From sequence record PV615261: DNA of 53,672 nt; one strand, given 5' to 3'. A program made the translations under genes and the position numbers. Source of the stretch: Shigella phage vB_Shi_2KOFFS. Under the pieces are notes generated by a model. That model was not told where the DNA came from. It saw only the letters and a program-made list of their open reading frames with translations, and ran no database searches. Of this stretch, positions 5,083 through 53,672 are shown in pieces (position 1 is the stretch's first letter; the number at the start of each line of letters is the position of its first letter).

Positions 5083-5143
5083 CAGAGTTGCTGCGCTGCA
5101 TGGTTCGCCCACCAGCGCGGCCCTCACTTTACAATAGTTGGAA

Positions 5144-5527
5144 ATGATGAAAATTTGTTCTAAGTGCAAAGTACCTCAAGATGAAGCAAACTTTCACAAG
5201 AGTTCATCTTGGTGTAAGCTTTGCAAGAAATTGAAGTATCGCGCAGAGTACAAATCTGCACCATTACCAGAGAAGCCTGTTCGTAATATTGAACGAGAGC
5301 GGGAACTAAATAAGGCAAGGTCTAAGAAACATGCAGAGTTAAATCCTAAGAAGCGTGCTGCCAGAGTCGCGGTACGTGGGATGATTCCTCCTGCACGTTG
5401 TATGGGGTGTTGCCAAGATAAGAAACTTGAAGCACATCACGACGACTACAATAAGCCAAAGGTTGTTCGTTGGCTTTGCAAAGAATGTCACACCCTGTGG
5501 CATATGAATAATACACCTATTGAATAG
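5144..5527 (+). CDS. HNH endonuclease (zinc-ribbon plus HNH)
   Basis: CSKCKV...CKLCKK zinc ribbon and C-terminal EAHHDDYNKPKVVRWLCKECHTLWH; paralogue of 46603..46995. Confidence 0.7.
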   Translation: MMKICSKCKVPQDEANFHKSSSWCKLCKKLKYRAEYKSAPLPEKPVRNIERERELNKARSKKHAELNPKKRAARVAVRGMIPPARCMGCCQDKKLEAHHDDYNKPKVVRWLCKECHTLWHMNNTPIE

Positions 5528-5540
5528 TTCGGAGCCTGAA

Positions 5541-7466
5541 ATGTTGTATCCTTACTCCAATATGTATGCTATGGATATTGAAACCACTGGCTTACTGGAC
5601 CAAATGAAGAAGCAAGAAGCACCGCGCTTGCACAACATGGGAATCATTGATGTTGTTTCTCGTGAAGAGAAGTGGACCGACAGAAAGTCTATCCAGGCAT
5701 TTCTGGATACAGGCCCAACATTAATCATGCACAACGGCGCAACCTTTGACTTTGAAGCACTGAGGTTCCTTGGCTACGACGTTTCAAAATGTACCTTAAT
5801 TGATACTTTGTTTATCAGTTGGTATCTGCAACCTCGTCGTGTTAAGCACGGCTTAGAAGGTTACGGCGAAGAGTTTGGTGTGCCAAAACCAGTCATTGAT
5901 GATTGGGAAAATCAAACTCAAGAAGAATACAACCATCGTGTGATGGAAGACTGCAAGATTCAGTTGAAGCTGTGGGAACAGCAATACATTCAACTCTTGA
6001 AGATTTATAAATCTCCTAGCGAAGTTAAGCGCTTCATTGAATACCTGATGACAAAAGCTCGTCAACAGGTTATTCAACAACGTACTCGCTGGAAGCTGAA
6101 CATTGAGAAGGCATTGGCATTTAAGGCCAAGCTGGAGCCAATGATTAAAGAGAAGACGGACGCATTGGAAGCATCAATGCCACGTATTCCAGAATATGTT
6201 ATCAAAACCCGTCCAGCTAAATGCCACAAGTTGAACGGACAATTATCTTCCGCTGGCATCAAGTGGAAAGCTATTTGTGATGCAAACGGTTTGGACTGGA
6301 AAGACCCAGACCTGGCTATCAAGGTTCTTAAAGGTTATAAGAATCCTAACGCTGGTTCTCATGTGCAAATTAAAGACTGGTTGTTCAGCTTAGGTTGGGA
6401 ACCGGAAACCTTTAAGTTTGACCGTAACAAGGAAACAGGTGAAACTCGCCAGATTCCACAAATCACTGTGAAGGATGAAGATGGCAATCCTGAAATATGT
6501 CCGAGCTTGCATAAGCTGGCGGAAAGAAACCCCGACTCTGGTATTCAACATCTTATTGGGATGGGCGTGTATAAACACCGTCTGTCTGTTGTTAATGGCT
6601 TCCTTCGCGACGTCGATGAAGATGGGTTCCTTACTGCACGATGCGGTGGCCTTACCAATACTTTACGCCTTAAACATCGCGAACTTGTTAACCTCCCTTC
6701 TATTCGTGTATTTGGCGGTGAAGAACTGCGTTCAATGTTGGAAGCGTGGCGCGAAGACTACGAACAGCTAGGCTCTGACTTGTGTTCTCTGGAAGACCGT
6801 TGTAAACACCACTTCCAGTGGATGTATGACCCTGAATACGTTAAGAAGCAGTTGGCACCAGACTATGATGCTCACCTTGCAATCGGCGTAATTGGTGGAT
6901 TTATTACTGAACAAGAGTCTCAGGACCACAAGGACGGAATTAAGAAGTGTAAACAACGTCCAATGTTTAAGACTACAAACTATGCTTGTCAGTATGGTGC
7001 TGGTGTGCCGACTGTAGCTCGTTCTGCTGGCTGTGACCAGACTACTGCTGCACGACTGCATAAAGCATATTGGGACTTGAACTGGTCTATTAAAGAGATT
7101 GCTGCAAACACCAAAGTTATCACAGTCGACGGTCAGATGTGGCAACAGAATCCAGTAAACAAATTCTGGTATTCATTGCGTACAGAGAAAGACCGCTTCT
7201 CCACATTGTGTCAGGGTACTGGTGCATATGTGTTTGATGTTTGGTGTAACAACATCATTGCAATTTGTAATGAACGTTGGGGCTGTGACCCACTTCTGTC
7301 CGGGCAATTCCACGATGAATTGATTCTCCAAGTTAAGAAAGGTTTCCGCGATTTGTGGACGGACTTGCTTAATGAGGCAATGGACCGAACCAACAAAGAA
7401 CTTAAACTTAACCGCGATTGTGCATGTGATGTACAGTTCGGTGATAACTACGCGGAGATTCACTAA
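5541..7466 (+). CDS. family A DNA polymerase with 3'-5' exonuclease domain
   Basis: Exo motifs MDIETTGL and HNGATFDFEAL; pol motif B KQRPMFKTTNYACQYGAG; motif C QFHDELIL; ATG 5541 after GGAG. Confidence 0.85.
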   Translation: MLYPYSNMYAMDIETTGLLDQMKKQEAPRLHNMGIIDVVSREEKWTDRKSIQAFLDTGPTLIMHNGATFDFEALRFLGYDVSKCTLIDTLFISWYLQPRRVKHGLEGYGEEFGVPKPVIDDWENQTQEEYNHRVMEDCKIQLKLWEQQYIQLLKIYKSPSEVKRFIEYLMTKARQQVIQQRTRWKLNIEKALAFKAKLEPMIKEKTDALEASMPRIPEYVIKTRPAKCHKLNGQLSSAGIKWKAICDANGLDWKDPDLAIKVLKGYKNPNAGSHVQIKDWLFSLGWEPETFKFDRNKETGETRQIPQITVKDEDGNPEICPSLHKLAERNPDSGIQHLIGMGVYKHRLSVVNGFLRDVDEDGFLTARCGGLTNTLRLKHRELVNLPSIRVFGGEELRSMLEAWREDYEQLGSDLCSLEDRCKHHFQWMYDPEYVKKQLAPDYDAHLAIGVIGGFITEQESQDHKDGIKKCKQRPMFKTTNYACQYGAGVPTVARSAGCDQTTAARLHKAYWDLNWSIKEIAANTKVITVDGQMWQQNPVNKFWYSLRTEKDRFSTLCQGTGAYVFDVWCNNIIAICNERWGCDPLLSGQFHDELILQVKKGFRDLWTDLLNEAMDRTNKELKLNRDCACDVQFGDNYAEIH

Positions 7467-7711
7467 TGCGTGTTTTAGCCTTGTACGACAAACAACAAAT
7501 GGAACTTTACCAGGCGGCTGGAGATATTCCGGCCACAGAACTGGCGGTGTCTGCAATTGAGATGCACGCCTCGGCATTATTTGGAAGTGATTATCAGGGC
7601 GATATTACCTATGAAGGTGCCCTGAAAGCACTAAAGGAATCGAAAGATTTCGCAGTAACACAATCTATCCTGTCCGACCTGGACATTGACTCTCACATTA
7701 TTGAAATTTAA
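7466..7711 (+). CDS. hypothetical acidic protein (81 aa)
   Basis: ATGA overlap with polymerase stop; acidic composition; no motif. Confidence 0.5.
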   Translation: MRVLALYDKQQMELYQAAGDIPATELAVSAIEMHASALFGSDYQGDITYEGALKALKESKDFAVTQSILSDLDIDSHIIEI

Positions 7712-12438: not shown

Positions 12439-12624
12439 ATGCGCACAATACAATGCCCCAACTGCCATTATGAAATTGCAGAAGATGATTTCATAACGCA
12501 GCAATGCCCTATCTGTGATTCATACATGCCACTAAACCGCCTGTACTTAAAGGCCGATTCTGGTTTAGGCAGCATCATTCGCATCAATCCCGTGCAAACT
12601 CAGCCATTAGTGGATTGTGATTAA
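12439..12624 (+). CDS. small zinc-ribbon protein
   Basis: CPNCHYE...CPICDSY paired CxxC motifs in 61 aa. Confidence 0.45.
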   Translation: MRTIQCPNCHYEIAEDDFITQQCPICDSYMPLNRLYLKADSGLGSIIRINPVQTQPLVDCD

Positions 12625-37770: not shown

Positions 37771-38870
37771 TGGCTTACACTACCTTTTCACAAACCAAGA
37801 ATAACCAACTATTAGAACCAATGTTCTTTGGTCAGAACGTTAACGTTGCTCGATATGACCAACAGAAGTACAGCATCTTCGAGAAGTTAATCGAGAAGCA
37901 GTTATCTTTCTTTTGGCGACCTGAGGAGGTTGATGTTAGCCAGGACCGAATTGACTATGCTGGTCTTCCTGAGTGTGAGAAACACATTTTCACCAGCAAT
38001 TTACGATACCAAATCCTGCTTGATTCCATTCAGGGACGCGGACCAACCACAGTTTTACTACCAATTGTGAGCATTCCTGAGCTGGAAACTTGGATTGAAA
38101 CTTGGTCATTTTCGGAGACAATTCACTCTCGCTCTTACACGCATATTATTCGTAATATCGTGACAGACCCAAGTGTCATTTTCGATGAAATTGTGGAGAA
38201 TGAGCACATTAAAATGCGTGCAATCGGCATCTCCCAATATTATGACGAGCTTCAACATCTGACTTCCATGTGGCATCTGCATGAAGATAAAGTTTCTCTT
38301 CGTGAGCTTAAGAAGAAGCTGTATTTATGCCTCATGTCCATTAATGCACTGGAAGCAATTCGCTTTTATGTCAGTTTTGCTTGCTCATTTGCCTTCGCTG
38401 AACGTAAGTTAATGGAAGGAAATGCCAAGATTATTCGCTTAATTGCTCGTGATGAAGCACTCCATTTGACCGGAACTCAGCACATGCTGAACCTTCTTGC
38501 AAGCGGTGTTGATGACCCAGAAATGGCCGAAATTGCTAAAGAATGCCGTCAAGAATGCCAAGAAATGTTCGAAAATGTGGCCCAACAAGAGAAAGATTGG
38601 GCTGATTATTTGTTCAAAGATGGCTCAATGATTGGCTTAAATAAGCAAATTCTGTGCGGATATGTGGAATATATCACGAATATTCGTATGCAAGCAGTTG
38701 GATTGGATGCTCCATTCAAAGGTGCTACTAACCCGATTCCTTGGATTAACGCATGGCTAAATTCGGATGCTGTACAAGTTGCTCCACAAGAAACGGAGAT
38801 TAGTTCGTACCTTGTCGGGCAGATTGATTCCGAAGTGGACACCAATGCTCTGGGCGGATTTGAGCTGTAA
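37770..38870 (+). CDS. nrdB: ribonucleotide reductase small subunit (class Ia R2-like)
   Basis: [20 protein letters not shown] and [30 protein letters not shown] match iron-ligand and tyrosyl-radical regions of class Ia NrdB. Confidence 0.75.
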
Positions 38871-39015
38871 CGATTATATGCGAGAAGAGATTCGATGCGT
38901 TAGCATCGTTTCTCTTTGAGCTAGAATAAAACAAGTAAATTAAATATTTATTTATTCCCAATATTGCTACAATATTAAGAGTAATATTAGGAATGCGTAA
39001 AGTTAAAACCAAATG

Positions 39016-39050
39016 GTACATGGTCGGTCAACTGTACCTGCTTCAATCTT
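39016..39050 (+). repeat. 35-40 nt intergenic repeat element, copy 1
   Basis: GTACATGGTCGGTCAACTGTACCTGCTTCAATCTT; second copy at 42611-42650. Confidence 0.6.
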
Positions 39051-39419
39051 CGTTCACGGTCGGTCAGCTGTATCTCGCCGAAATTTGTTCGAACAGTTGT
39101 CTGACTATGAAATAATTTTTTTTTTATAATTTTTTTTTATTCTTAATATTGTTACAGAATTAATGAGACTAAAATTCGTAACAAAGCTACGAGACTCGAC
39201 TTGTTACAATATTAATGAGACTCGAATTGTGGCAATATTAATTTTTTATTTTTAGGGGCCGGGGAGCAGAAGCCCAACGTCCTATCGGACTTAAATACGG
39301 TCCCTACTCCAACTTTTTCCTACAGCCTATCGGCTTTCAAACAACACCAAGTTAGGCGCTTCGCTTATAAGTCAAGGTCAAAGGCAATCAGAGTACGCTG
39401 TTGTAATGTGCTAATCTCA

Positions 39420-39436
39420 CCATTAGTTGGTTGTGA
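39420..39436 (+). promoter_or_regulatory. conserved promoter-like motif (CATTAGTTGG family), upstream of RNA polymerase gene
   Basis: cCATTAGTTGGtTGTGA; one of at least 9 copies of consensus ACATTAGTTGGATGTGAA. Confidence 0.45.
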
Positions 39437-39498
39437 TTATGAATAGGCTACGCAAGTCTAATCCGTTTCAGTTAAATCATAATCAATTGGAGACTATC

Positions 39499-41613
39499 AT
39501 GACTAACGAAGAATACCGTGCACTGGCTGCTGATGGCGCTCGCTTGAAAGAAGAAGGCCAAGGTTGGAAAGACGTGCTCGATACGATGGACCGTTGCAAT
39601 CAGATGGTAGATGAAATCACCTCCGCTACACAATCCGAAACTAAAACCGAAACTAAATTGGAGACTCGCAAAATGACAACTATCTCAACTCAAACTATCA
39701 AATCCGTTGTCCCTGCTATCACTGCTCTGGTATATCGTGCCAAAGAGAAACAGAACTACATGCAACCTCAGACCTGTGCTATTGCTGCTCTTGCAATCTT
39801 TAAGATGATGACCTCATTCACTCGTGATGATGTTGTTCCTGCAATTGCAATGGTTGAGCTGGCTTCTGCTTCAATTGCTGATGCCAACCGCTACAACAAC
39901 GATTTGAAAGCAATGCACTATGTTGACCCAGCTATCAACCTCATTGGTCTGGCTAAACACTTTGGCTTCATCACCATGAACGAAGATAAGTCATTCCAAC
40001 AAACTGACACATGGGTTGAACTGGTTACAACCAAAGACACAGCAGTGCCATTCACTGAGCGTGTTACATCTGAATCTCGTCGCAAGCCTTTCGTTAAAGG
40101 TGGCAAAGTTAAGCCATCCAAGACTCTGAAAGCTGCAATCGAATTCCTGCAAGATACTGAGTACCATGTGGAGACTGAGATGGTTCGCATCATTCAGTCC
40201 ATGCTTGAGCAACGTACTTATGGTGGCTTGCAGATGCCAGAAGCAATCCAGACTGAACTCCATGTTTGGAACAATGCTGTAGCAATGATGAATCAGGACA
40301 CACTGTATTCTGACTACTTTGCTGATAACCGTGGCCGTCTGTATCATGTAGCATGTGCTGGCCCTAACCCACAATCCTCTGACTTTGCTCGTTGCTTGTA
40401 TTCTCACAATGTTGAGAACATCGTTAAGAAGTTTAACGAAGATGGTTCTACTACCATTGCATACAACATGTTCATGGCAGAGCTGGAAGATATTTCTGGT
40501 GGTGAATGGTGCAGTGCTAAACGTTTAACTTATGTTGCTCAGAATCCGGCTGGTTCACTTGCTCGCATGATGAACATGCCTAAAGCTGAACGTCCTTCCA
40601 AGCCATTCACTTATGTTCGTCTGGCTCTGGATTGGTTCAAGTTTGAGACTATAGGTGAATGCGATTCTCGTGTAGGCTTTGGCTTAGATGCTAAATGTTC
40701 TGGTACTCAATATCTGGCATTCATTGCTGGTAACATGGAAATGGCTCGTGCTACAGGTCTGGTTGATTCTGAGACTAAAGCATCTGACCCATACCAGTTG
40801 AGTCTCCGTGAACTGTTGAAGTTACTCGACCGCTCTTCAATGAAGCCATCTCCTGAAATCATGGACGAATTCTTGAATCCGAAATCTGGTCGTAAGTTTA
40901 TCAAAACTCCGTACATGGCTATCCAATATGGTGGTGGTAAAGCTGCATTAACTGGTTCTTCTGACTTTATCTCCTACATGACAGAAGCGCTCCAGATTCC
41001 TATGGAGAAAGCTGAGGCATTTGCTGAACTGTGTGTAGAAGCAATCCATAACGCATTGGGTGCTAAGATTAACATGTTCATTGAGAAAGCTGCTGATGCT
41101 GCATACAACCGTTGTGTTGAACTTGGTAAAGAGTACATCACATACCGTCACACAGACGGTCAGGTTGTAATGAAGCCTTGCTTCCCATCTCGTGAAATCT
41201 GTGAGGCATTCAGCATTCGTGTTGACTCTCAAACTCGTGTCATCTTTGGCCAGATTCAGGAGAATAAGCCTTGGACCATTCGTGAATCCAACCCAACTAA
41301 AGAAGAATTCAAGCGTACTTTCGTTGTTAACTACATTCAAGGTATTGACGCATTGGTTGCTCGTACTGTTGCAGTTAAAGCTAAAGAAGCTGGTCTTCGT
41401 GGTTTTACTTCAATCCATGATTGTTTCCGTTGCTGTCTGGCAGATGCTCCACGTATGATGGAAGTTATTCGTGCAGCATATGTTGAAATCTTCGTAACCA
41501 ACAATCAATTCGAGAATCTGTCTAAGCAACTTGGTGGCATTCAGATGTATCATGAGAACATCGTAACCGAAGAGCTTCTGATGAGCGAACACGCTTACTA
41601 CTTCTGTCAATAA
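39499..41613 (+). CDS. T7-like single-subunit DNA-dependent RNA polymerase
   Basis: Motif A GLDAKCSGTQYLAFIAG (T7 DGSCSGIQH), motif B RKFIKTPYMAIQYGGGK, motif C FTSIHDCFRC (T7 IHDSFGT); ATG 39499 after GGAG; about 704 aa. Confidence 0.8.
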   Translation: MTNEEYRALAADGARLKEEGQGWKDVLDTMDRCNQMVDEITSATQSETKTETKLETRKMTTISTQTIKSVVPAITALVYRAKEKQNYMQPQTCAIAALAIFKMMTSFTRDDVVPAIAMVELASASIADANRYNNDLKAMHYVDPAINLIGLAKHFGFITMNEDKSFQQTDTWVELVTTKDTAVPFTERVTSESRRKPFVKGGKVKPSKTLKAAIEFLQDTEYHVETEMVRIIQSMLEQRTYGGLQMPEAIQTELHVWNNAVAMMNQDTLYSDYFADNRGRLYHVACAGPNPQSSDFARCLYSHNVENIVKKFNEDGSTTIAYNMFMAELEDISGGEWCSAKRLTYVAQNPAGSLARMMNMPKAERPSKPFTYVRLALDWFKFETIGECDSRVGFGLDAKCSGTQYLAFIAGNMEMARATGLVDSETKASDPYQLSLRELLKLLDRSSMKPSPEIMDEFLNPKSGRKFIKTPYMAIQYGGGKAALTGSSDFISYMTEALQIPMEKAEAFAELCVEAIHNALGAKINMFIEKAADAAYNRCVELGKEYITYRHTDGQVVMKPCFPSREICEAFSIRVDSQTRVIFGQIQENKPWTIRESNPTKEEFKRTFVVNYIQGIDALVARTVAVKAKEAGLRGFTSIHDCFRCCLADAPRMMEVIRAAYVEIFVTNNQFENLSKQLGGIQMYHENIVTEELLMSEHAYYFCQ

Positions 41614-41632
41614 CAACTAAGCGCCAAGGATG

Positions 41633-41650
41633 GCATTAGTTGCATGTGAA
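41633..41650 (+). promoter_or_regulatory. conserved promoter-like motif copy
   Basis: gCATTAGTTGcATGTGAA, 26 nt upstream of ORF start 41676. Confidence 0.45.
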
Positions 41651-41675
41651 TCTAATAAACAATTTGGAGCATATC

Positions 41676-41843
41676 ATGTTTACAGTGACCCTAGTAACCT
41701 ATTACGGCAAACAAGTTTGTGAGAAGTTTGAGACTTTAGAAGAAGCAAGAGCTTTTGCAGCACTTGAAGAGAACATTTATGTAGAGTGTGAAATCACTGA
41801 TGGTGATAAGCAATACGAAATAGTTAAGCCTACACTCAACTGA
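41676..41843 (+). CDS. hypothetical small protein (55 aa)
   Basis: ATG after GGAGCATATC; downstream of promoter-like motif. Confidence 0.45.
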   Translation: MFTVTLVTYYGKQVCEKFETLEEARAFAALEENIYVECEITDGDKQYEIVKPTLN

Positions 41844-41893
41844 TTCCCAATATTCAGACAATATTGCTGCATGTAATATTGTCTCGATATTCG

Positions 41894-41911
41894 ACATTAG
41901 TTGGATGTGAA
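41894..41911 (+). promoter_or_regulatory. conserved promoter-like motif copy
   Basis: ACATTAGTTGGATGTGAA exact consensus; no ORF follows for about 1.1 kb. Confidence 0.45.
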
Positions 41912-42610
41912 GTAAAAGAATACGGAGAAATATTACTCACGTTGTTCGTGGGTTTCCGCATGTCATGTTGAATCATTCTAGAAACATTCAGCATGTCAGC
42001 TTTGAGTTACAGTGTTGTAATGATGTGGCAATCATTGAACTCCCTAGGTAGGCCACCTACAGTTCCAGCAACCATGACTTAGAGTAGGAATATCTATCCG
42101 AAACTTGTACTTCACCTATAGCATGTTCAATTGCGACAATATTGCTCCATCTCCTATTATAAAGGCCCACCCACAAGCCGGGAGATAACTTTGGTAATAT
42201 TGGAACTTTTGGACATGCTTCTTTCTTTCAATCAGAATTCGAAAGAAGAGAAGAGTCGGAGCAAAGCCTCTCGTTTTCACGCAGAAGCCGCCCCGATTTT
42301 GAGCAACAAATATTGTGACAATTTTGTCGCAGTATGGCATGTAAATATTGCTACAAATTGGCATGTTAGAATGTGGCAGAATTGTTAGAGGACTAATCAC
42401 CTCGAAGATACAATCGTCTACCAATCTGGCATGTTAATTTTGTAACAGTATTTGTGCCAATTTCGCATGTAATAGCTGTATCAGTAATGACCCAATATTC
42501 TTGCAACCCGCATGAATACTGGCTTCCAGCCAAGCGAAGGCTTTATCATCGCATGTAATATTGTGACAATATTGGGATAAAACCCTTTATTTAATTTGTT
42601 TTATTATGCT

Positions 42611-42650
42611 GTACATGGTCGGTTTTCCGTACCTGCTTGCTCCAATCTTA
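42611..42650 (+). repeat. 35-40 nt intergenic repeat element, copy 2
   Basis: GTACATGGTCGGTTTTCCGTACCTGCTTGCTCCAATCTTA; matches 39016-39050. Confidence 0.6.
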
Positions 42651-42765
42651 ATGTGCCAAATACGTTAAGTATGGGAGTAAACCTGTAATTAATGGTGCAT
42701 GTTTAATTGTGACAAAATTCGTCTATTTGGCAGATGAATTAGTTGCAATTAAGCATGTTCATTTA

Positions 42766-42783
42766 TCATTAGTTGCATGTGAA
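42766..42783 (+). promoter_or_regulatory. conserved promoter-like motif copy
   Basis: tCATTAGTTGcATGTGAA. Confidence 0.45.
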
Positions 42784-43076
42784 TAAGACCAAATCTCTGT
42801 AAATTCTGCTGAAATTGTGTGACAGATTTTAGAGAGATTATGTCTCCAAGCTAATCATTGTAGTTTTTAGACACTTTGTGTGTCACATATATAGCCTGTG
42901 AAAAACGTGTGGTTTATTGCCGGATTGCAACGCGCCCACCAGACTAGGAAGTCCCTGATGGCGGCACACACAGGAATACTATATAACTCCCTACAACTTT
43001 AAGGTGGATTGAGGTAAGACAAGACCTCCACAATCGTTCTGTAGGGAGTTCTTTTAACTTAGGAGAATAAGCAGAA

Positions 43077-43307
43077 ATGAATTACGCACTGTATTGCTAT
43101 TTAAACAAACAAGGCTTTGTTAAGCACGCTTTGGTTAACATTAAAACTAAGGAAGTATTGTTGGCCGACCAATCAATTGTTGACTTTAGATTGGTATGGA
43201 AGAAAGCAATGCACCCTGAACATGTTTGGGAAACAATTCAGTTAGATAAGCACCACAAAATTGTGGCAACTGCTACTCGTCCAGACCACATTCTACCAAG
43301 AGGTTAA
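43077..43307 (+). CDS. hypothetical early protein (76 aa)
   Basis: ATG after AGGAG; first ORF after the 1.2 kb non-coding region. Confidence 0.55.
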   Translation: MNYALYCYLNKQGFVKHALVNIKTKEVLLADQSIVDFRLVWKKAMHPEHVWETIQLDKHHKIVATATRPDHILPRG

Positions 43308-46130: not shown

Positions 46131-46148
46131 ACATTAGTTGGATTTGAA
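46131..46148 (+). promoter_or_regulatory. conserved promoter-like motif copy
   Basis: ACATTAGTTGGATtTGAA, 75 nt upstream of 46223. Confidence 0.45.
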
Positions 46149-50240: not shown

Positions 50241-50258
50241 ACATTAGTAGAATTTGAT
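50241..50258 (+). promoter_or_regulatory. conserved promoter-like motif copy (degenerate)
   Basis: ACATTAGTaGaATTTGAt, preceded by TTAATTCTG shared with copy at 50381. Confidence 0.35.
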
Positions 50259-52344: not shown

Positions 52345-52362
52345 ACATTAGTTGGATGTGGA
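52345..52362 (+). promoter_or_regulatory. conserved promoter-like motif copy
   Basis: ACATTAGTTGGATGTGgA, 77 nt upstream of 52439. Confidence 0.45.
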
Positions 52363-52777: not shown

Positions 52778-53672
52778 GTTGCCGATGGCAAACTTGAGAG
52801 ACTAGGCTAAATCGATCTGGCGTGCACTGGAAGTTTTCCGGTGCTGCCTTGAACCCATTCCAGAGTGAGTGGGCTTCAATGAGCATTCTTGTGATTAGAG
52901 TTGGGAGGTAGGCCGATGCCCAAGCTCATGGCCCAGACAAGAGTGTTCATTGAAGTAGTTTTCTGAGTCTTACGACGGGCCTAAACTGCCTGGAGTTATT
53001 GCGACTGTTTTATTCATTTAAAATAAATGCAAATGATTCTGAAATGCGAGTTGCGGCTTAATTAAATTTAAGTCCTCTCCGTGGTCTTCCAATCCCACGT
53101 AACCAAATTTGGCGCATTGTGGCTTCGAGATGTGATTAATAAATCGGAGCATTAATTAATTTGTATTCTGCGATGCAAAGCAGGCTTAAGTCCTCCAGTG
53201 CGCGTGGGGATGTGACAGAGTACAAACTTAATTATGCAGTTGGATATTTCTAGAGGACGGACGAGCACACTGGAATGTCTTCAATTGGTTTAGTGTGAGA
53301 AGCTATGCCAATTTGAAACGTAACTCCTTGAGGAAGTGCTCCTCTGGACTTCCCTCCACACAGGAATCTCAAGCCTGTGGCAGCGACTTCGAAGCTGCAC
53401 TGCGTAACCTAATTCACCCTAAAGTGAGTTGCCCTGAGCATGGAAATAAACTGCTCATAACCGATGGTATCTACAAAGGTAGATTAAATCAGGTTGCCTG
53501 TTGGTACTTGGGTTCAACACCTGCTTGCACTCGCAAAGTAGTGCCTCGTACCTGAGATGAAGTGAGTCGGGACCATCAATCCCACGTTATGTCAAAACAC
53601 AGTAGGCGACTCACAGATTCTACAAGCCTCGCAGTTCGGGAAAACCTGCGTTATCAAAACCCCCCCCCCACC

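Follow-up and report, generated by a model that had tools for sequence, protein, structure and literature searches.

The open reading frame (ORF) at positions 39499 to 41613 of Shigella phage vB_Shi_2KOFFS (PV615261) encodes a T7-family single-subunit DNA-dependent RNA polymerase (RNAP). It is very probably the Carltongylesvirus ortholog of phiEcoM-GJ1 gp01, that is, the first gene of the genome, lying inside a direct terminal repeat of ~3 kb and displaced in the sequence record by a permuted assembly. The whole stretch of DNA that was analyzed (53,672 bp) is referred to below as the window.

39499-41613, + strand: RNA polymerase coding sequence, long form (704 aa plus stop), homolog of phiEcoM-GJ1 gp01

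The ORF begins with an ATG at 39499 preceded by a GGAG box, and its stop codon ends at 41613, giving a product of 704 aa; the reading frame is open from a TTG at 39427 and holds a further in-frame ATG at 39439. The first-pass annotation had described a short T7-like RNAP with motifs A, B, and C and a length of ~704 aa, compared with 883 aa for the T7 enzyme. Both lengths were confirmed, and profile searches, which it had named as a possible source of refutation, upheld the assignment. The ORF matched Pfam family PF00940 (RNA_pol) with 67.7 bits (E = 1.1e-18), above the curated cutoff of 22 bits, and PHROG 414 (phrog_414; "RNA polymerase") with an E value of 5.3e-97. When a profile built from 48 homologs was aligned using hhalign, query residues 211 to 665 corresponded to residues 317 to 836 of T7 gene 1 (probability, 98.4%). 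The key residues of motif A (D397, equivalent to T7 D537), motif B (R465/K469/Y477, equivalent to T7 R627/K631/Y639), and motif C (H640-D641, equivalent to T7 H811-D812) are invariant in the 48 homologs. The catalytic core is a complete T7-type palm, fingers, and thumb, in which the ribonucleotide-selecting Tyr of T7 motif B is conserved, as is the Lys. An AF2 model of the protein (pLDDT, 87) has a right-hand polymerase fold whose closest relatives are the T7 and mitochondrial RNAPs, with T7 RNAP being the top Foldseek match (E = 1e-19). Beta-strands predicted by AF2 at residues 564 to 595 fall at the position that hhalign would give to T7 residues 739 to 770 and may represent the specificity loop, the promoter-reading beta-hairpin of the fingers. 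A single-protein sequence search of the PDB recovered T7 RNAP only marginally (E = 0.004), so that recognition depended on profile and fold comparisons.

Compared with T7 RNAP, the protein is shorter chiefly at its N terminus, with query residue 211 corresponding to T7 residue 317; hhalign also indicated deletions in the thumb and fingers. The N-terminal domain of ~150 aa is roughly half the size of its T7 counterpart (316 aa) and looks winged-helix-like; a hairpin at residues 158 to 168 may be either a wing or a counterpart of the T7 intercalating hairpin. A profile search of the PDB with the alignment of this domain returned nothing significant. The homologs, grouped into 113 clusters, have a median length of 643 aa, with 87 of the clusters in the range of 625 to 649 aa. 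An exhaustive search yielded 611 cluster representatives at an E value of ≤0.001 and 114 at an E value of ≤1e-10; many of these homologs are 630 to 730 aa long, and short PF00940 polymerases are therefore not rare. The window differs from phiEcoM-GJ1, ST32, and PO103-1, whose RNAPs have 646 to 648 aa, by an insert near the start of the gene, which divides the coding sequence as follows.

39499-39672, + strand: N-terminal insert of 58 codons, found in ~10 Carltongylesvirus genomes only, with a duplicated TTGGAGACT box on its flanks
39673-41613, + strand: putative short form of the RNAP (646 aa), starting at an internal ATG (M59) with its own TTGGAGACT box

The insert comprises 174 nt, in frame, after the start codon. 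The 646 aa of the form lacking it correspond to the RNAP length given in the annotations of most family members. A tblastn search for its origin found matches only in the ~10 Carltongylesvirus genomes that share it, and the 704-aa length is, judging from these sequences, a peculiarity of one lineage. The TTGGAGACT box resembles a ribosome-binding site, and its two copies bracket the insert; given this duplication, the putative ancestral start at M59 (39673) would retain a ribosome-binding site. Residues 1 to 60 were modeled at low confidence (AF2 pLDDT, 34 to 65). Within the insert, the substitutions among three relatives show a synonymous-to-nonsynonymous ratio of 10:3, an excess that would weakly favor translation of the insert.

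The first-pass annotation had also remarked that the RNAP gene follows the late and lysis genes. This is accurate in window coordinates, where the holin, endolysin, and nrdB genes lie directly upstream of the gene and a block of small early genes lies directly downstream, but it does not hold as an odd position. In phiEcoM-GJ1 (gp01), ST32 (ORF1), Mangalitsa (Mangalitsa_001), PM1 (PM1_001), 4HA13 (gp02), and PYps23T, no more than one ORF separates the RNAP gene from the left end of the genome. In Mangalitsa, 4HA13, PM1, JL1, and PYps23T, it is located inside a long direct terminal repeat. The repeats were predicted by PhageTerm in Mangalitsa (3,234 bp) and 4HA13 (3,120 bp), are present as two copies in the records of JL1 (2,995 bp) and PM1 (2,665 bp), and were experimentally determined in PYps23T (2,339 bp). 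Both border sequences of the JL1, Mangalitsa, and 4HA13 repeats are conserved in the window, in which a collapsed assembly would hide the duplication. Homology to the borders in JL1, Mangalitsa, 4HA13, and PM1 delimits the following feature.

39286-42257, no strand assigned: putative direct terminal repeat of ~2.97 kb

By homology, the left border (~39286) falls between …cctat and CGGACTTAAATACGG, and the right border (~42257) falls between …gaagagtc and ggagc. The segment enclosed holds the entire RNAP gene and three copies of the motif described below. Because the putative repeat spans the RNAP gene, virion DNA would be expected to contain two copies of this gene, one at the left end, where it should begin the early region, and one past nrdB at the right end. 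The window is a permuted, arbitrarily linearized, and circularly collapsed assembly of the whole genome, and the gene appears "after the late genes" because of the point of linearization and the terminal repeat. Once the genome is rotated, the position of the RNAP gene is the norm for the family and represents no unusual regulatory placement. Relatives carry a tRNA, and an ARAGORN search for a tRNA spanning the window ends found none.

The promoter-like motif that had been reported ahead of the RNAP gene is indeed present, as CATTAGTTGGTTGTGA at 39421-39436. It is one of nine copies of CATTAGTTGNWTGTGA detected when the whole 53,672-bp window was scanned on both strands with ≤2 mismatches. All nine are on the + strand, compared with a chance expectation of 0.47, and none of 100 shuffled sequences reached nine copies; a weight-matrix scan of the minus strand found zero copies. 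The copies, listed in the order of the rotated genome, are as follows.

39421-39436, + strand: motif copy CATTAGTTGGTTGTGA, 63 to 78 nt 5' of the RNAP ATG
41634-41649, + strand: motif copy 21 nt past the RNAP stop and 27 nt ahead of a small ORF (41676-41843)
41895-41910, + strand: motif copy, "putative phage promoter 1" of phiEcoM-GJ1
42767-42782, + strand: motif copy preceding the small early genes, "putative phage promoter 2" of phiEcoM-GJ1
46132-46147, + strand: motif copy, phiEcoM-GJ1 promoter 3, ahead of the gene block of the single-stranded DNA-binding protein
50242-50257, + strand: motif copy, putative promoter 4 of phiEcoM-GJ1 (2 mismatches)
52346-52361, + strand: motif copy, phiEcoM-GJ1 promoter 7
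7575-7590, + strand: motif copy past the DNA polymerase gene, putative promoter 8 of phiEcoM-GJ1 (2 mismatches)
12605-12620, + strand: motif copy 24 nt ahead of the ATG of the terminase large-subunit gene (12644)

Seven of the nine copies are outside any ATG-initiated ORF of at least 50 aa, and the remaining two are at the 3' ends of small ORFs, with the next gene just beyond. The phiEcoM-GJ1 record annotates six of the nine as "putative phage promoters" and has no annotation for the other three (i.e., the copies before the RNAP gene, just after it, and before the terminase gene). The motif also occurs 5' of the RNAP gene, at varying distances, in Mangalitsa, Bp10, JL1, phiEcoM-GJ1 (as a variant), PYps23T, PM1, and 4HA13. 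It is thus kept in PM1 and 4HA13 (RNAP identity to that of the window, 71 to 76%), and copies are also found past the RNAP gene in a Hafnia prophage, for which this identity is only 52%. The 16- to 17-bp motif is accordingly shared across genera and by an integrated relative as well. Similar promoter predictions have been published for PP101. Taken as a whole, the motif is a well-supported candidate promoter for the phage RNAP. A point against this reading is that the 26-kb structural module has only one strong copy in front of it (12605), so that either weaker sites or long transcripts would have to serve it.

An alternative with a rather low probability accepts the protein as a phage RNAP and regards the motif as bound by some other regulator, as a place of processing or pausing, or as part of the machinery that forms the terminal repeat. 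It agrees with the statement in the ICTV profile that chasevirus promoters "have not yet been identified" and with stretches of ~300 nt without ORFs after the copies at 41895 and 42767. A role in repeat formation is further suggested by PYps23T, in which the 2,339-bp repeat starts and ends exactly within two motif copies, between ATTAGTTGGA and YGTGAA; these borders may be real or may reflect a PCR template switch. The coincidence of repeat borders with motif copies was dropped as a general rule because four other genomes (JL1, PM1, Mangalitsa, and 4HA13) place their borders at another conserved site, CGGAC/TTAAATACGG. The copies are, moreover, strictly on the coding strand and are found genome-wide ahead of gene blocks rather than just at repeat borders, and their length of 16 to 17 bp and their layout, including the copy just past the RNAP gene, are like those of T7-type promoters. 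The reading of the motif as an RNAP promoter is preferred.

Two further features lie between nrdB and the RNAP gene.

38893-38908, + strand: terminator-like hairpin and T-run after nrdB, between the late/lysis block and the RNAP region
39101-39239, + strand: sigma-70-like promoter candidates and AATGAGACTNGAATTGT repeats, consensus-level matches only

The counterpart of 39101-39239 in phiEcoM-GJ1 is annotated as a "putative host sigma70 promoter." A sigma-70 scan around the RNAP gene gave matches no more frequent than those in shuffled sequence, and an Rfam scan of 38800-43200 gave only subthreshold miRNA matches, which we regard as noise. The sigma-70-like cluster is located upstream of, and outside, the putative terminal repeat, so that the left-end copy of the RNAP gene would lack it. 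These sites would then serve the right-end copy only, unless the genome circularizes or forms concatemers.

We propose that the host RNA polymerase would first transcribe the RNAP gene from the sigma-70-type sites at 39101-39239. The remainder of the unidirectional genome would then be left to the phage RNAP, starting at 16- to 17-bp promoters with the consensus CATTAGTTGGATGTGAA, which are presumed to act on the coding strand, both in front of gene blocks and directly past the RNAP stop, in the manner of T7 phi1.1A. The motif copy before the RNAP gene may exert positive feedback on RNAP, and translation may start from 39499 (704 aa), from 39673 (646 aa), or from both. The compact ~646-aa RNAP and its candidate promoter would lend themselves readily to in vitro transcription, and the enzyme might serve as a small orthogonal polymerase. 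A bolder reading, which we consider possible though doubtful, is that the 646-aa RNAPs of Chaseviridae form a minimized promoter-specific class, in which a winged-helix-like module of ~150 residues reads the 17-bp CATTAGTTGGATGTGAA, expression is autocatalytic, and the 704-aa lineage has two isoforms. If this were true, the T7 promoter-binding domain would have been reduced to, or replaced by, the winged-helix-like module; the promoter copy in front of the RNAP gene, inside the terminal repeat, would drive the autocatalytic expression; and the duplicated ribosome-binding sites would be the means by which the 704-aa lineage makes its two isoforms.

By genome comparison, the phage is a member of Carltongylesvirus (Chaseviridae, Cleopatravirinae). 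A megablast search with the RNAP gene matched 52 phage records with identities of up to 96.9%, and homologs are labeled "RNA polymerase" in >30 records; the close matches are all classified in this genus. The protein shares 99.0% identity with its counterpart in Escherichia phage vB_EcoM_Bp10 and 92% with the phiEcoM-GJ1 RNAP. The Carltongylesvirus RNAPs (i.e., those of phiEcoM-GJ1 [gp01], Bp10, SKA49, Mangalitsa, ST32, and PO103-1) are orthologous to that of the window, with amino acid identities of 92 to 99%, and share the upstream nrdB, the small early genes downstream, the motif, and the location in the terminal repeat. The whole-genome comparison with known families that the first-pass annotation had called for was performed: 92.7% of the window aligned with PO103-1 at 95.8% identity (product, 88.7%), where the thresholds are ~70% genome-wide similarity for a genus and 95% for a species. 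Collinearity extends to dozens of Carltongylesvirus genomes (nucleotide identity, 88 to 97%); the gene content of the window agrees with the annotations of phiEcoM-GJ1 and PO103-1, and its gene order agrees with that of phiEcoM-GJ1. These genes include those for a Toprim/DnaB-type primase-helicase and a family A DNA polymerase; terminase, portal, sheath-like, and tube proteins, an SLT-domain tape-measure protein, and P2/Mu-type baseplate proteins; and holin, endolysin, and nrdB among the lysis and further genes. According to the ICTV profile, chaseviruses are myoviruses whose genomes of 52 to 56 kb bear ~3-kb terminal repeats and encode a single-subunit relative of the Autographiviridae RNAP. 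The window, with 53,672 bp and its signature genes on one strand, fits this size range.

That the genome is an unplaced mosaic with an unusually positioned RNAP gene, in need of new taxonomic placement, is therefore a very improbable reading. The components on which it was based are real, since the phage combines a sheath-like protein and a P2/Mu-type baseplate with a family A polymerase replisome. The unplaced status is not, since a family, a subfamily, and a genus already exist for it, and the position of the RNAP gene is normal after rotation. At the species level, the value of 88.7% to PO103-1, the nearest genome checked in full, is below the 95% species line, and by this comparison alone the phage may represent a species of its own. 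At the family and genus levels, the mosaic reading is refuted by the RNAP matches, the collinearity, and the PO103-1 alignment. With a phiEcoM-GJ1-like arrangement and a family already placed, the phage is thus an ordinary representative of a well-described family, the very outcome that the first-pass annotation had given as refuting its reading, and both the RNAP gene and its phage setting are already known. According to its GenBank annotation and to later papers, the type phage phiEcoM-GJ1 was described in 2008 (Jamalludeen et al.) as a myovirus with a podovirus-like RNA polymerase. A T7-like RNAP in a myovirus was a surprise in 2008; it is now the defining trait of a ratified family from which dozens of members have been sequenced. 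The finding of the gene as first stated carries little weight, given that its product is 99% identical to deposited ones.

Beyond the family, the RNAP resembles that of T7 (gene 1, 883 aa; Autographiviridae) in its fold and in motifs A, B, and C. It also has a conserved aromatic C terminus, in a region outside the T7 alignment. The two systems are further alike in having phi1.1A 26 nt past gene 1 in T7 and a motif copy 21 nt past the RNAP stop in the window. However, the proteins are only ~15% identical, the N-terminal domain has no detectable sequence similarity to that of T7, and the motif is unrelated to the T7 promoter consensus TAATACGACTCACTATAG. The gene also differs in being the first gene, within a 3-kb terminal repeat, in a myovirus; whereas Autographiviridae have a podovirus structural module, the window carries sheath-like, tube, tape-measure, and baseplate genes. 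The mitochondrial RNAPs (yeast Rpo41 and human POLRMT) are 12 to 17% identical to the RNAP of the window. They are much larger, have N-terminal extensions, and require accessory initiation factors. The structural scores of N4 mini-vRNAP and N4 RNAPII were below those of the T7 and mitochondrial enzymes. N4 vRNAP, one domain within a giant virion protein (~3,500 aa), recognizes hairpin promoters; neither feature was seen for the RNAP of the window, with its ORF of 704 aa. The genome encodes a separate DNA polymerase and primase-helicase, so the product of ORF 39499-41613 is a transcriptase, and there is next to no chance that it is instead a DNA polymerase, a primase-polymerase, or a fragment of an N4-type virion RNAP. 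The nearest tblastn matches outside Chaseviridae were from the Xanthomonas siphophages OP1 and Xp10 (22 to 25% identity over 57 to 70% of the query). They provide a precedent for a PF00940 RNAP outside podoviruses, although virion type, genome layout, and gene position differ.

Two minor observations concern other genomes. Positions 3 to 63 of the window match Stx phages, and integrated relatives are present in Hafnia and Pseudomonas chromosomes.

The RNA polymerase (RNAP) gene (39499-41613, + strand; 704 aa) begins with a stretch that is absent from the short-form polymerases, and the region around its start contains the following features.

39499-39672: in-frame N-terminal insert of 174 nt
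39652-39675: second box region
39439: additional in-frame ATG, 3 nt past the promoter-like motif and 60 nt upstream of the annotated RNAP start

A TTGGAGACT ribosome-binding-site box occurs in duplicate, one copy at each boundary of the insert, so that ATG 39499 and ATG 39673 share an identical upstream box. Because the box precedes both ATGs, two RNAP isoforms, starting at 39499 and 39673, are possible. The insert was confined to about 10 Carltongylesvirus genomes; among 50,697 phage records, no homolog was found outside them. The ATG at 39439 is probably unused as a start, because no obvious ribosome-binding site was seen upstream of it and the short-form phages do not preserve the sequence at this position.

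The RNAP gene is enclosed by a long direct terminal repeat, inferred by homology to span 39286-42257. In four genomes (i.e., JL1, PM1, Mangalitsa, and 4HA13), the repeat borders fall at two sites, CGGAC/TTAAATACGG, which is conserved, and ...GTCGGA. In contrast, the 2,339-bp repeat reported experimentally for PYps23T has each of its two ends exactly inside a copy of the promoter-like motif (ATTAGTTGGA|YGTGAA). This placement reflects either a genuine difference or PCR template switching at the promoter-like motif.

Chaseviridae-type RNAP genes also occur in bacterial chromosomes, where they adjoin an integrase and host genes.

Hafnia alvei, GCA_002206365.2 (4.8-Mb contig), locus L011: RNAP 52% identical
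Pseudomonas brenneri, CP122540.1, loci L013/L014: RNAP 38% identical

The gene order in Hafnia is yccA-side host genes, integrase, holin, endolysin, RNAP, and ArdA, and that in Pseudomonas is baseplate, fibers, lysozyme, RNAP, early genes, integrase, and AhpC. A CATTAGTTG..GTGA motif is common to the Hafnia element and the window phage. The family is described as lytic, and both elements appear to be temperate relatives of it that have integrated.

The non-coding flanks of the RNAP gene (38950-39240 and 41845-43070) are rich in repeats, including a 17-bp palindrome-like sequence (AATATTGTGACAATATT) that recurs about 10 times, about 14 GCATGT repeats, and a third repeat present in three copies.

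39016, 39052, and 42611: GTACATGGTCGGT..GTACCTGCTT repeat, in the RNAP-gene flanks

No convincing open reading frame was found over approximately 1.2 kb downstream of the RNAP gene. Candidate roles for these regions are as operators, as early promoters, or as a replication origin, by analogy with the origin that T7 has downstream of gene 1.

At the window ends, positions 3-63 match Stx2a-converting lambdoid phages at 98.4% (61 nt), with no match found in Chaseviridae genomes, and a C-run (…aaaaccccccccccacc; 53655-53672) closes the sequence. These ends could reflect an artifact of the assembly junction at the linearization point or, alternatively, a short patch of foreign DNA. No tRNA was found across their junction or elsewhere in the window, whereas the corresponding region includes a tRNA-Arg/Leu in phiEcoM-GJ1 and in some PYps phages. 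Several HNH endonuclease genes are present in relatives and are variable in the window, as illustrated by stretches without a match in PO103-1 (e.g., 231-435, 786-1237, and 5128-5541). The tape-measure or tail-lysin-like protein (23377-27048; 1,223 aa) contains an internal YqaJ-like recombinase/exonuclease domain match (residues 459-595; E = 2e-12) and a C-terminal SLT transglycosylase domain.
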